A stretch of DNA of 32,000 bases from Candidatus Lokiarchaeum ossiferum (GCA_025839675.1 CP104013.1:5970001-6002000), one strand, 5' to 3'; positions 12,307 through 26,900 are shown, counted from the first letter of the stretch. Notes: a model not told the origin generated them from the letters alone. Numbers and translations are program-made.

Positions 12307-12795
12307 TTCGAGTGATTGGGGCATAAATATTAACTTTCATAAAAATTTGTTTAAATCTATGCTATTTTTCCCCCATTGGGCCAAAAATTTTTACGTTTCA
12401 ACTTTAATTTATTTAATTTTTTTATCAATATTATTATATAATACAAATTATTCCCTTTTTTTCACTAAAAACAGACACCTTGCTTTTTTTTTTAGTGAAC
12501 TATAGCTCATAGTTCATCATTTATACAAAAATATTACTATATCGGTAAATGAATCACAGAAATGAGAAAAAAAATAATTTGAATAAAAATCGAAGCTGAC
12601 TTTTTCCCAGCCATGGTGAAAATTCCTGTTGGTTCTGCTCAAAATTCCACTCGCCCATTTTTCGGAGTTTTTTTAAGGAAAATCCACCAAAATGCCCCTT
12701 TTCCACGTTTTCCGAACAAATATTTCTCGCATTCCACCCATTTCTTTCCCTACGGGTCTCTCCATGATCCTTTTCCCCTTCTCCTATGATCTAAT
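12307..12795 (+). repeat. Flank-repeat copy A (CT-rich intergenic repeat family), without an adjacent family gene and carrying a ~200-bp AT-rich insertion
   Basis: 12589-12790 aligns base-for-base with 26553-26755 (ATCGARGCTGAC..TTTTCCC.CCCATGGTGAAAATTCC...CCAAAATGCCCCTTTT...CTCGCATTCCACCCATTTCTTTCCC...TCTCTCCATGATCCTTTTCCCCT). 12307-12382 aligns with 26421-26480 (TTCGAGTGATTGGGGCATAAAT.. / ..TTTTTCCCCCATTGGGCC). Confidence 0.75.
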
Positions 12796-12801
12796 CTTTC
12801 A

Positions 12802-13060
12802 CGCTTGATGCCAACACCAATGGCGATTGGATTCCCGATCAATGGGATACCGACCCCACTTCATCCTTGTATCCATGGGGATTTGGAGTTCTTGTTTTAG
12901 CCCTTTTAAGTATTTTTGCGTTTTTACGGGCCACTTAATACCTCATCGATGATCTCCGAATTGAATGGTAATCTTTGCGCAAAAAATTATATCGCTTTGA
13001 AAAAAATCTAAAACTTTAATCTGAGAATGGGGCGTAATATCCTCTCCCGTTAATAAAGAA
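12802..13060 (+). pseudogene. Duplicated, decayed 3' fragment of the LVIVD/TSP3 gene (copy of about 10675-10930)
   Basis: It translates as DANTNGDWIPDQWDTDPTSSLYPWGFGVLVLALLSIFAFLRAT-stop, compared with VADTDGDWIPDQWDADPLSAWYPWGFGLPVIAILALFLLLR in the intact gene. DNA identity continues through the gene's 3' flank (CTGAGAATGGGGCGT.ATATC.TCTCCCG..AATAAAGAATTTAC...GC.TTGATCAAATT.CATTCTC) to about 13100. The tail has multiple stops. Confidence 0.8.
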
Positions 13061-13300
13061 TTTACCCGGGCTTTGATCAAATTTCATTCTCGCTTGAAAC
13101 TAAAATATCTAACCCATGCGATAAGGTGTGCTGGATAATATCCACGAAAATTATCCCATTTTTTCCTATTTCATCTTTCTCCATATTTTCCCTTTTCGCT
13201 TTGATTGATCAAGATTCTCTTTTCTCAGAAAAAACCTCGAGCCAAGAGGGAAAAAAAGAGGGTAAAAATCCGTTGAATTTTCTTGGAAACATTCGAAAAC

Positions 13301-13588
13301 ATGGGGTTAAATAGATCCTCTCGAGTAACTTTCTTGGATGAGTCGTTCGGTGAGGTTCGCTTCATGATCAAAATATCGCCAGATGCCCGGATTGTGAAAG
13401 CGATCTATCTCGGGTATGATGTGGTCGCACACAAAGTTCTATTTCAAATTCCTCCTGATGAAACGATTTTCAGAGCTCAATATAATCCCAGTCTATGGGT
13501 CTCCCAAGATTTGAAGTTGCATGATGAGTTGTTAATTCAAACTTTGGATGGGTCGCTAGATGAAGTCTTTTCGTTACAGAAAATCTAA
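13301..13588 (+). CDS. Hypothetical small protein (~95 aa)
   Basis: Only an ORF with plausible, non-low-complexity sequence (MGLNRSSRVTFLDESFGEVRFMIKISPDARIVKAIYLGYD..). No recognisable motif or clear promoter. Confidence 0.35.
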   Translation: MGLNRSSRVTFLDESFGEVRFMIKISPDARIVKAIYLGYDVVAHKVLFQIPPDETIFRAQYNPSLWVSQDLKLHDELLIQTLDGSLDEVFSLQKI

Positions 13589-13908
13589 ATCTGGGTTGTG
13601 TTTTCAGTTTTTTTTCGTTTTTGTCCCTCAATATGATCTAATTTCAATTTTTAATTCGGAATGCTTATTCCAAATCAATTGCTAGGCTATTGGGTTAATA
13701 ATTTAATGAATTCGGAGATCAATTCGAAGAAAGAGATGTGATTATCATTCAACCTTTCAGAAAAAAAATCAAACATAAAATTCGAAACAAAACCAAAACT
13801 CTACAAACCTAACATCGACATCACCACGAAAACATTGCTTAAATCCAAAAATCGAAACAAAATTATTTCCAGATCTAGAAATAGATAAAATAAAATAAAA
13901 TAAAAAAA

Positions 13909-25276: not shown

Positions 25277-25582
25277 ATCTTCATGGGTACAAATTTTTTA
25301 AATTCCTTGTTCCCTCAACTCTTCTGGATTAGGAACAAAATAAACCCATCTGTTTTTTACAATTACTTCTATATCTGTTCAAGATACCACCGCTTGTTTT
25401 TGTTATGGCTTTTGCGTAAACGCATTGATGACATGATGATATCTCAACTTCACAGCCATTAACTAATTGTTGTTCAATTTCCCTTCTGCGCTCCTCCTCC
25501 CTCTCCATATGGGTTCTTGTGGATATTATGGAAATGATTGATTTTGGTATAATCCCTTCAGCTATATGACGAAAGCAAAATC

Positions 25583-25590
25583 GATATAAG
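25583..25590 (+). promoter_or_regulatory. TATA-like box (GATATAAG) ending 21 nt upstream of the ATG at 25611
   Basis: Sequence and spacing match the other putative leaderless promoters in the window. Confidence 0.4.
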
Positions 25591-25610
25591 AATCCAAAAA
25601 GTAATTTACA

Positions 25611-26399
25611 ATGAAAAATGAAGCAAGCTATAATCAAGATGGGTTAGTTATATTCCTCTCCCTCTCATCCATTATCCTATGTGTGATGATACTTAGTACA
25701 ATCATCGAAAATCTCAAGAAAAGGCAGACAAAAGAAGAGCTTTGGCAGAAATTTCTACGAAAAAATCAATCTCACTTAATACATGTTCAGGATTTATGCG
25801 ATGCAGGTCATTTTGAGGAATCTAGTAATCTTTACAGATCGGTAAGATCCAAAATCAATCGCTCATGTCTAAAAATCTTGGAAGAACATTTAAAACCCGT
25901 TTTGAAGAAAAATCATCTCAATCTACGTGTAAGTCAAAATTCCACCCAAATTCATGCATTATTAGACGATCAACAATATATTGAAGCATATCGAAAAACT
26001 CAGGTTATTTTGCATGAAATTGAGAATGCAGATGTATCTTTACTTAACAATCCTCAACTAATTATTGAATTAAAATCAATTCACACCGAATTAAAACAAC
26101 AAATTTGTGAAAAACGTCAAGATATTCAAGAAAGAATTAACGCCACCTCCCATTTAATTAAATCACAGCAATACGATCTTCTTATTTGTAAATTTGATGA
26201 ATTACTCCAGGAACTTCAGCAATGGCCCTTTATTGTTCTTAAAAAAGAATTAAATGAACGTTATCAACTCTTTCTTAAATTCCAAAAAACTTTCCAACTA
26301 AATAGAGATGATAGATTAACCAATTTTCTTGAAAAGCTCGATACCGATTTTCAAGATTGGACATCCAAAGAAATAGCCACATTTGGTAAAAAAATATAA
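25611..26399 (+). CDS. Single-pass membrane protein of the LDxDFxxW-x7-LGKK family (short ectodomain, TM, cytoplasmic helical-repeat domain)
   Basis: MKNEASYNQDG, then TM LVIFLSLSSIILCVMILSTII, then ENLKKRQTKEE. The helical hairpins are CDAGHFEESSNLYRSV, DDQQYIEAYRKTQVIL and KSQQYDLLICKFDELL. The end is ..NFLEKLDTDFQDWTSKEIATFGKKI-stop. Confidence 0.8.
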   Translation: MKNEASYNQDGLVIFLSLSSIILCVMILSTIIENLKKRQTKEELWQKFLRKNQSHLIHVQDLCDAGHFEESSNLYRSVRSKINRSCLKILEEHLKPVLKKNHLNLRVSQNSTQIHALLDDQQYIEAYRKTQVILHEIENADVSLLNNPQLIIELKSIHTELKQQICEKRQDIQERINATSHLIKSQQYDLLICKFDELLQELQQWPFIVLKKELNERYQLFLKFQKTFQLNRDDRLTNFLEKLDTDFQDWTSKEIATFGKKI

Positions 26400-26900
26400 A
26401 TTTGCATACATTATCTCATATTCGAAGAGCTGGGAGATAAATTAATTCAAAATAACACGTATTTTTTTCCCATTGGCTTCTTTCCTTCACTCTCGAACTT
26501 ACCATTTTCTCGCTGCTTTTTCCTAATCTATTGCATCTTCTCCTATATAAAGATCGAGGCTGACATTTTCCCGCCCATGGTGAAAATTCCTTTTGCATCC
26601 GCTTAAATTTCCATCCGCCTCTTTTTCGAGGTGATCTTTGAGGAAGATCCTCCAAAATGCCCCTTTTTCTCGTTTTCCGATCAGTTTTCTCTCGCATTCC
26701 ACCCATTTCTTTCCCCTCGGATCTCTCCATGATCCTTTTCCCCTCCTTACATGATCCTCCCTTCAACACTTCTTGCATGATTTTCTTCAATCCCCGATCA
26801 TTTTAGCTCTTCCAATGATCCTTCTCCGCTCATTGTTCCCCCTCCCCTCTCCCCTCCCATTCCCGATCGGTTATCACTTCCCACCAAAATCACAGCCTTT
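26400..26900 (+). repeat. Flank-repeat copy D (longest copy), strongly pyrimidine-rich on the + strand
   Basis: It shares 26421-26480 and 26553-26755 with copy A, 26500-26650 with copy B, and both ends with copy C. It contains the box TATATAAAGATCGAGGCTGAC (26544-26564) and the tract TTCCCCCTCCCCTCTCCCCTCCCATTCCC (26836-26864). Confidence 0.75.

Follow-up and report, generated by a model that had tools for sequence, protein, structure and literature searches.

A stretch of 32,000 nucleotides from the genome of Candidatus Lokiarchaeum ossiferum strain B35 (GCA_025839675.1, CP104013.1:5970001-6002000; hereafter, the window) carries a multicopy repeat that is real, conserved, previously undescribed, and non-coding. 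The reading that we favor, with somewhat less than even confidence, is that this element may be a selected regulatory module between gene cassettes, composed of a TATA-box core promoter with an adjacent dyad and acting also as a recombination anchor. The window is a stretch of about 34% GC in the 6.03-Mb genome, and the closest relatives of its proteins are those of the annotated Ca. L. ossiferum, CP163304.1. The island in which the repeat lies is bordered on the left by an alpha/beta-hydrolase gene (8104-9006) and on the right by an acetyl-CoA synthetase (ACS) gene (27122-29140). It contains a LVIVD/TSP3 protein, NosD/beta-helix proteins, a minus-strand acyltransferase-like gene, two insertion sequences (ISs), and members of a family with the C terminus LDxDFxxW...GKKx. 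The surface-protein classes across the island are NosD/beta-helix, LVIVD, LamG, and this small, Lokiarchaeum-only membrane-protein family.

About 16 copies from three genomes were compared. Strain B36, with a genome-wide average nucleotide identity (ANI) to B35 of 97.2% (preprint, bioRxiv 10.64898/2026.02.13.705702), is represented by a locus syntenic with the window (L002) and by another locus (L014). A third Lokiarchaeum-like genome (L015/L017) carries the same island, with a flanking metallophosphoesterase and hydrolase that are 85% and 81% identical in amino acids to those of the window. L014 and L017 were reached via three family members from an exhaustive profile search. In total, about 47 kb of sequence outside the island was sampled.

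An exact 29-nt motif, CTGRCWTTTTYCCNNCCATNNTGAAAATT, occurs at four sites in the window, all on the plus strand (12596, 17375, 21472, and 26560), and was matched in 0 of 100 shuffled sequences. BLAST of copy D against the window recovered copy B (73.8% over 367 nt, E = 8e-61), copy A (80% over 230 nt, E = 1e-52), copy C (62.9% over 178 nt, E = 3e-12), and a further copy, E, matched at 9049-9223 (E = 4.5e-7). The four plus-strand copies A to D of the original prediction, which was made from the window sequence, are thus borne out, and the near-identical blocks that it quoted are found in the window. Their extents required revision. Copy A, placed at 12307-12795, shares homology with other copies only over 12580-12811, and 12307-12582 matches only the orthologous B36 spacer; copy D, placed at 26400-26900, stands to about 26776, beyond which its sequence is common to no other window copy. 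The supposed fifth copy, split between 17787-17866 and 19618-19700, proved to be the inverted ends of a DDE-type IS, with a similarity to D that was reached by 90 of 200 and 40 of 200 shuffles, respectively. Core and profile searches found no copies at 1-9000 or 27000-32000, and a possible further copy at 25362-25415 was not significant (nhmmer E of about 2). As predicted, this multicopy, non-coding sequence shows much stronger conservation than the paralogues beside it: identity among copies A, B, and D is 75 to 87%, against only 21 to 27% for the adjoining family proteins.

Alignments of the copies revealed a three-part anatomy of arm, core, and tail (Table 1). The arm spans about 130 nt from a stop codon to the core and includes a T6-T7 tract. 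It trails the closest family paralogues alone, except for one instance in the third genome, where an unrelated 744-aa gene precedes it. The core, about 150 nt, reads ...TCTCC-TATATAAAG-ATCGAGGCTGAC-TTTTTCCCGCCCATGGTGAAAATTCCTTTTGG/C..TGCT.A.AATTCCA.CC..C...TTTTTCG...TTTGAGGAAAATCC.CCAAAATGCCCCTTTTCC and contains a dyad, ATTTTC-N11-GAAAAT with the center CCATGG, that is retained in about 8 of 11 copies. The tail is CT rich, with about 95 nt common to A and D. T tracts follow the stop codons of co-oriented genes (T7 at 26462-26468, T7 at about 17248-17254, and T6 at 21476-21481).

No reading frame is conserved between copies on either strand, in agreement with the original prediction. An ATG does lie near the expected plus-strand transcription start site (TSS), the first 9 to 13 codons recur in many copies, and annotation pipelines called open reading frames (ORFs) on three copies. 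A tiny protein, whether a leaderless MVKIPFGSA... peptide on the plus strand or MGGKKSASIFI on the minus strand, is nevertheless extremely improbable. The start codon is missing in B, C, E, and B36 copies 13920 and 12235; the ORFs run to 9, 19, 27, 59, and 65 aa with unrelated tails; and the differences between copy A and third-genome copy L017 18842 are equal over the three codon positions. No homologues were found outside the locus, and a search with the minus-strand ORFs returned only the three ORFs of this locus.

The element recurs in the same island of both other genomes. In B36, locus L002 carries six, all in the same direction, at 526, 4022, 7308, 10922 (which has lost the TATA box and core start by deletion), 12316, and 13920. 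In the third genome, four lie past the hydrolase gene, at L017 8301, 9838 (its second half alone), 17907, and 18842; copy 8301 follows a 566-aa gene orthologous to the 564-aa gene of the window, and copy 18842 lies between two minus-strand genes without a window counterpart. In the three genomes, about 16 of about 16 copies point the same way and all lie in one island. The density is 6 to 7 copies in the 18-kb island versus none in the sequence sampled outside it, and none was found in L014, L013, or flanks; as far as sampled, the element is island specific. An exact-pattern core scan of a public genome collection, apparently one without Lokiarchaeum genomes, gave one chance match with strict and relaxed patterns. 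The same scan of a metagenome collection gave none with the strict pattern and eight chance matches with the relaxed pattern, each of pattern length only, and a scan of IMG/VR gave no viral match.

Conservation is concentrated in the core. Along identity profiles of D versus B and D versus the copy behind the B36 354-aa family gene, genes are 60 to 67% identical, the DNA just past the stop codon is 43 to 57% identical, and a peak of 90 to 95% spans 26510-26600. This peak coincides with the TATA box and the next 50 to 60 nt. Over an 88-nt core (26544-26631), identity of the third-genome copies to A, B, and D of the window is 73 to 83%, the range also seen among the window paralogues (80 to 87%), and the third-genome copies do not cluster together. 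A 31-nt block, CATGGTGAAAATTCCTTTTGGTTCTGCTCAC, is identical in L017 8301 and B36 7308, with two mismatches in window copy A. Drift has brought C, E, and B36 4022 down to 48 to 68%. Fourfold-degenerate sites between these organisms are 45% and 39% identical in flanking housekeeping orthologues and 64% identical in the 564/566-aa pair. These sequence comparisons indicate that several copies are probably under purifying selection. Very recent segmental duplication confined to this locus, the alternative named with the original prediction, agrees with the finding of all copies in one island and fails on age: because cores in the second species are still 73 to 83% identical while synonymous sites are saturated, recent duplication alone is not a sufficient explanation.

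The TATA box at the center of this conservation, TATATAAA, is invariant in most copies. The module is a non-coding unit of about 130 to 250 bp, with one copy in nearly every island spacer and all copies in the same direction. In the reading that we favor, its conserved heart would be an archaeal core promoter, comprising the TATA box and the bases conserved on either side of it for about 20 nt, next to a dyad block of 60 to 130 bp in which ATTTTC-N11-GAAAAT around CCATGG is a putative regulator binding site. A regulator acting there would place the island's transcription units under one shared control module. We infer promoter activity, its direction, and regulator binding from sequence features. 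Transcription would more probably run leftward, on the minus strand, although the near-palindromic TATATA may instead fire rightward or in both directions; the hexamer TATATA itself is palindromic, which would allow the latter. A survey of 45 upstream regions in these genomes counted 6 sense-oriented occurrences of TTTATATA against 1 of TATATAAA. The clear local promoters have TT-TATATA 28 to 55 nt before the ATG, with the TT flank in all clear cases, and the element on its minus strand reads CTTTATATAGG, with TT before TATATA as in these promoters. Where the arm is missing, the copies cease to be homologous about 20 nt to the left of the box, near the expected minus-strand transcription start. 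The minus-strand TATA box of copy F is positioned 55 nt upstream of the ATG of a 210-aa minus-strand gene (16288-16920). Leftward firing would be sense to the minus-strand genes beside F, A, B36 7308, B36 13920, and L017 18842 and antisense to the family-gene 3′ ends beside B, C, and D; the dyad would then be an upstream regulator site, or an operator over the start site if firing is rightward.

Archaeal core promoters can have an adjacent regulator site, and divergent transcription can occur from symmetric TATA boxes. The element resembles archaeal promoters built of a B recognition element (BRE) and TATA box in its TATATA with a local-type TT flank, its conserved bases to about the expected TSS, its adjoining dyad, and, for copy F alone, a canonical distance (about 25 to 60 nt) to a start codon. 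Unlike usual archaeal promoters, it is multicopy and near-identical before or behind unrelated genes, most copies lie 130 to 580 nt from any start codon, and conservation extends over 130 to 250 nt on one side.

Several points weigh against this promoter reading. In every copy but the decayed F, 130 to 580 nt lie between the TATA box and the closest start codon on either side, and several neighboring genes have their own proximal TATA-like boxes. A purine-rich BRE is not evident on either side, judged by the textbook BRE and not by a Lokiarchaeum consensus: the minus side has CTCGATC, which resembles ACGAGC in the promoter of the 210-aa gene, and the plus side has TCTCC. A literature search returned no description of the element, of Lokiarchaeum promoters, or of a Lokiarchaeum TSS map. 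The orientation argument is based on few promoters, and leftward firing makes most window copies antisense into family genes, which is unproven biology. As to selection, synonymous divergence within the island is lower and patchy (64% at fourfold sites, and more than 80% DNA identity across species in the last 90 nt of some family genes), and part of the cross-species similarity could come from exchange or gene conversion instead. The D region is uninformative on selection between B35 and B36: the intergenic DNA is 97.7% identical, against 81% at ACS fourfold sites, patchy ACS third positions, and the strain-wide ANI of 97.2%.

Conversion tracts are indeed present. Copy A is a three-way mosaic, with a left flank like L002 at about 3848-3953, a D-like TATA-proximal part, and a right part that is 89% identical to L002 7352-7570; likewise, a B36 family-gene fragment is near-identical to the 3′ end of the B36 354-aa gene. 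Given these tracts and the patchy synonymous divergence, exchange contributes to copy similarity too. The mosaic structure of A from three copy types and the matching 3′ ends in B36 also fit a functionless relic, in which gene-plus-spacer units of the island were serially duplicated in tandem and kept similar by gene conversion or lineage exchange, with recombination at the copies a mere side effect. So do the confinement of every copy found to one locus and the way in which element similarity tracks gene similarity: a gene pair with 42% amino acid identity has cores 88% identical, a 27% pair has cores 63 to 66% identical, and a 20% paralogue has no core. We regard this explanation as unlikely, though not negligible. 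It does not readily account for a sharp peak of about 100 nt at 90 to 95% between flanks at 43 to 67%, with coding DNA less conserved than the spacer. The unclustered third-genome copies, as close to the window copies as the window paralogues are to each other, argue against within-genome homogenization, and synonymous sites of the flanking orthologues are saturated. The look of unconstrained copies is instead shown by C, E, and B36 4022.

Another reading is a small non-coding RNA (sRNA) family. If the TATA box fired rightward, it could produce a pyrimidine-rich, largely unstructured RNA of about 50 to 250 nt, from near CCATGGTGAAAA to one of the conserved T tracts, that acts by base pairing or protein binding. 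Conservation is strongest directly beyond the right edge of the TATA box, and a TTTT tract some 70 nt farther in that direction is invariant in every copy that aligns at that point. All copies are intergenic, with an orientation independent of the neighboring genes, L017 18842 has no plus-strand gene downstream, and the D transcript folds slightly better than shuffled sequences (z = −2.7). Even so, we consider an sRNA distinctly unlikely. The check for conserved RNA structure proposed with the original prediction gave zero consensus pairs by RNAalifold for 10 or 14 copies on both strands, and the 14 copies show no covariation. Rfam had no match in the element at E up to 1, and C/D-box motifs are lacking (AUGGUGA stands where RUGAUGA is required, and CUGA is absent in register). 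The asymmetry of the TATA box fits local promoters on the opposite strand, the copies end at differing 3′ points, and B36 10922 keeps the remainder of the element after loss of the TATA box and core start.

Several known classes of element were also considered for the repeat. A structured RNA was rejected on the basis of Rfam, RNAalifold (10 and 14 copies, both strands), and single-sequence folds. Sequence inspection showed that the motifs, partner genes, or arrangement were absent for C/D-box sRNAs, ORB origin-recognition repeats, template/variable repeats of diversity-generating retroelements, TnpB-type guide RNAs at gene 3′ ends, and IS110 bridge-RNA targets.

The relationship of the element to the family genes is looser than was first proposed. 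The claim that copies begin at the stop codon of a family gene holds for B, C, and D (gene or fragment) and fails as a rule, since A, E, and F have no upstream family gene. Elsewhere, copies B36 10794, B36 12235, and L017 8301 do follow genes ending in GKKx, whereas B36 7308, B36 13920, L017 17907, and L017 18842 do not. Conversely, two family-domain genes have no element, namely 7259-8023 in the window and the gene for a 975-aa protein in L014. The earlier suggestion of a 3′-end appendage of family genes is therefore not supported; only the arm of about 130 nt travels with the closest paralogues. Because the core is found both with and without family genes, it is best described as a constant spacer between variable cassettes.

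The same distribution bears on a 3′ untranslated region or terminator module, in which the T tracts would end family-gene mRNAs and the conserved sequence would stabilize or regulate their 3′ ends. Such a role would suit B, C, D, B36 10794, B36 12235, and L017 8301, which lie directly behind genes ending in ...GKKx, and the arm places a T6-T7 tract 40 to 65 nt past the stop codon, with further T tracts in the core; U tracts are a known archaeal termination signal (PMC8716108). We nonetheless judge it quite improbable, given at least seven cores without a co-oriented or family gene upstream (A, E, F, B36 7308, B36 13920, L017 17907, and L017 18842) and the two family-domain genes without the element. 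In addition, the DNA just past the stop codon is the least conserved (43 to 57%), and the peak starts about 110 nt downstream (about 26510), beyond the T7 tract that would already terminate transcription.

To compare the B35 and B36 islands, we set aside the two IS insertions, and three kilobase-scale indels remained. The first is the NosD-962 cassette that B36 carries between cores 4022 and 7308, where the window has the single hybrid core A. The second is a segment with the 354-aa family gene and LamG that B36 carries between cores 10922 and 13920, where the window has the single copy D, with a switch at 26528-26534. The third is a window-specific 8-kb segment (17237-25317) with its left end in the arm of B and its right end beside the possible decayed core, which is not significant. 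Two of these cassette indels thus have both ends inside cores, and genes of the third genome also lie between part-copies of the core. No simple presence or absence of a copy was seen in the B35/B36 comparison; all differences are kilobase-scale indels that end inside copies. The indel ends fall in different registers within the repeat, and unequal homologous recombination between direct repeats of 130 to 250 bp is sufficient to account for them. Since the copies are direct repeats, they serve as crossover points for the deletion or insertion of whole cassettes between strains, and cassette loss or gain between these co-oriented repeats explains the difference between the B35 and B36 surface-protein islands. 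In the favored reading, the module would have been copied whenever cassettes were duplicated and then kept by selection; recombination is a demonstrated result of this, and that role may itself be selected or a by-product.

One co-oriented copy per cassette, minus-strand genes between direct part-copies in B36 and the third genome (as after Campbell-type integration), and the same core in unrelated gene contexts of different genomes are also what a mobile element would leave, either a hitchhiker like a miniature inverted-repeat transposable element (MITE) or an attC-like cassette site used by a recombinase. This explanation is very improbable. The element lacks terminal inverted repeats, target-site duplications, and defined ends, its 3′ ends are ragged, and it has no palindromic attC-like fold; these features and the single orientation also show that it is not an ordinary MITE, an alternative likewise named with the original prediction. 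No inverted repeats of at least 40 nt involving copies were found in the window, and no complementary termini were found in the copy alignments. Proteins of the window scanned with Pfam, together with the gene tables for the loci, revealed no recombinase, integrase, or tyrosine recombinase, only IS110-type and DDE transposases, both of which belong to strain-specific insertions unrelated to the element. The database scans gave no viral match and chance matches only, and homologous recombination between the direct repeats already accounts for the indels.

Comparison with known systems places the element between several of them. Like MITEs and repetitive extragenic palindromic (REP) or bacterial interspersed mosaic (BIME) elements, it is small, non-coding, intergenic, and repeated; unlike them, it has no inverted ends, target duplications, or hairpin, and it is clustered in one orientation in a single 18-kb island. 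With integron cassette arrays it shares one conserved, co-oriented site per cassette, strain-variable content, and some inverted cassettes. No integrase is present in the window or loci, however, and the varied registers of the indel ends are those of homologous and not site-specific recombination. In attC sites it is a folded imperfect palindrome that is conserved and not the sequence, whereas the Lokiarchaeum element conserves sequence and has no fold. Intergenic repeats that accompany variable genes for surface proteins occur in Neisseria, namely the Sma/Cla repeat located 3′ of pilE/pilS loci and NIME/dRS3 arrays. The Lokiarchaeum element is likewise a short, non-coding, multicopy sequence beside, and often 3′ of, variable surface-protein genes, and it is conserved while the genes differ, providing homology for cassette exchange between loci or strains. 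It differs in being archaeal and unrelated in sequence, in lacking 20-bp inverted repeats of the dRS3 type, in having a TATA box, and in its restriction, as far as sampled, to a single island. We know of no antigenic-variation system in this Lokiarchaeum setting. A stronger proposal, that this is a dedicated cassette-organizing element in which a regulator-bound, shared bidirectional or antisense promoter coordinates or switches surface-protein cassettes and is also a selected substrate for shuffling, seems improbable to us.

Table 1. Copies of the repeat and associated features in the window
Feature	Coordinates	Strand	Remarks
Copy E, strongly diverged core	9067-9213	+	About 60% to D; between alpha/beta-hydrolase and LVIVD genes
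Copy A, core with degenerate TATA box, plus tail	12580-12811	+	GAATAAAAA at 12581-12589; adjoins duplicated LVIVD 3′ fragment
Copy F, decayed core	16970-17040	+	Central block deleted; TATATAAAGCTCGTGGGTGA (16970-16989) near-identical to B36 copy L002 7308; nhmmer matches weak (window 16970-16991; L002 9390-9460, E = 0.008)
Copy B, arm and core	17211-17470	+	Arm 17211-17345, core 17346-17470; TATA box 17359-17366; 87% to D as repeat; cut off past T tract; behind family fragment 17130-17207
Copy C, diverged core, no arm	21445-21591	+	63% to D; ATATAAAG at 21457-21464; begins 24 nt past stop of 564-aa NosD/family fusion gene
Copy D, arm	26400-26524	+	Spacer from stop codon of 25611-26399 to core; T7 tract 26462-26468; otherwise only in copies behind close family paralogues and at L017 17830-17900
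Copy D, core	26525-26683	+	nhmmer 26531-26683, E = 7.5e-45; TATA box TATATAAA at 26544-26551, equal to TTTATATA on minus strand
Copy D, core dyad	26565-26587		ATTTTC-N11-GAAAAT
Copy D, most conserved core block	26574-26594		CCATGGTGAAAATTCCTTTTG
Copy D, core T5 tract	~26621-26625
Copy D, CT-rich tail	26684-26900	+	GC skew −0.46; 26684-26776 about 80% to copy A; 26777-26900 otherwise only in B36 orthologue
Family gene outside island	7259-8023	−	No element copy downstream (negative control)
Family-gene 3′ fragment	17130-17207	+	Upstream of copy B; second fragment at 17571-17786
DDE-type IS	17785-19631	+	ORFs 18118-18600 (160 aa) and 18606-19607 (333 aa; weak DDE_Tnp_1 match); 13-bp inverted ends TAATTGAGTGAAT at 17785-17798 and 19618-19631
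564-aa fusion gene	19727-21421	+	NosD/beta-helix ectodomain, transmembrane segment, and family domain; upstream of copy C
Family gene, 262 aa	25611-26399	+	N-terminal transmembrane segment, helical region, C-terminal LDxDFxxW...GKKx; upstream of copy D

The family whose genes adjoin several copies is small, with about nine true members among 1.84 billion cluster representatives in the exhaustive profile search; word-indexed protein searches for further members returned only the locus's own proteins. Its members are encoded in the window (7259-8023 on the minus strand, 17130-17207, 17571-17786, 19727-21421, and 25611-26399), in B36 (L002 11119-12183 and L014 6001-8928), and in the third genome (L017 6527-8227 and 10001-11671), and the source of every member traced is Lokiarchaeum-like DNA. 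They share a transmembrane segment, a helical region, and an invariant acidic-aromatic C terminus, LDxDFxxW-(8 aa)-GKKx. The family domain stands alone or is fused behind NosD/beta-helix or DUF285 ectodomains and is therefore probably a cytoplasmic tail domain. The B36 orthologue of 25611-26399 has an apparent frameshift near its 3′ end, with 229 aa called and the GKKL codons downstream in another frame. The copy behind it (L002 10915-10930) has a clean 41-nt deletion, with the junction TCTATTGC/TATGGTGAAA, through which the TATA box and core start were lost and the rest was kept.

Further observations concern the DNA beside individual copies. Within the D tail (26719-26825), ATGATCCT(T/C) occurs three times (26719, 26751, and 26815), and GATC-containing motifs are frequent. 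On the minus strand these motifs read A(A/G)GGATCAT and resemble a ribosome-binding site plus start codon, which probably explains the pipeline ORF calls there. At copy A, the LVIVD/TSP3 3′ fragment 12802-13091 is a duplicate of 10675-10963 (74 to 85% identity) joined straight to the tail; this junction is also present in B36 (L002 7542-7831) and is therefore older than the strain split. The NosD/beta-helix ORFs 21748-24075 and 23921-25276 overlap by about 150 nt in different frames, and Logan gene calls put the second start at about 24059, so that these are either two neighboring genes with an overextended ORF or a larger gene with a frameshift. To the right of the island, ACS (27122-29140) is 95% identical to L002 14511-16529 and 81% identical at fourfold sites, with a third-position identity of 35/50 to 49/50 per 150 nt. 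This patchy divergence, well above the level implied by the ANI, suggests mosaic recombination with a more distant lineage.

Regarding the two ISs, the DDE-type IS begins exactly at the stop codon of the family fragment 17571-17786 and has A-rich, inverted-repeat-like flanks (GGAAAAAAGAAT / GTTTTCTTTTTTTCC). The IS110-family element (13909-16220) has a minus-strand transposase ORF (13981-15498) with DEDD_Tnp_IS110 and Transposase_20 domains, and an A-rich insertion site. Upstream of the transposase are about 700 non-coding nt, the place where a bridge or guide RNA is expected in the IS110 family. B36 does not have this element, and its locus shows a clean, unoccupied site at L002 ~8640.

L. 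ossiferum is among the very few cultured Asgard archaea, and its promoters, regulatory DNA, and genome plasticity are almost uncharted. The repeat provides a well-defined and, as conservation indicates, selectively maintained non-coding sequence present in about six copies per genome. If it is no regulatory switch, it would be an ordinary duplicated promoter or spacer. If it were a dedicated cassette-organizing element, it would be the counterpart in archaea of the surface-variation systems of bacteria, with no recombinase of its own. Should it prove to be a regulatory switch shared by surface-protein cassettes, no earlier system of this kind would have been described in Asgard archaea.

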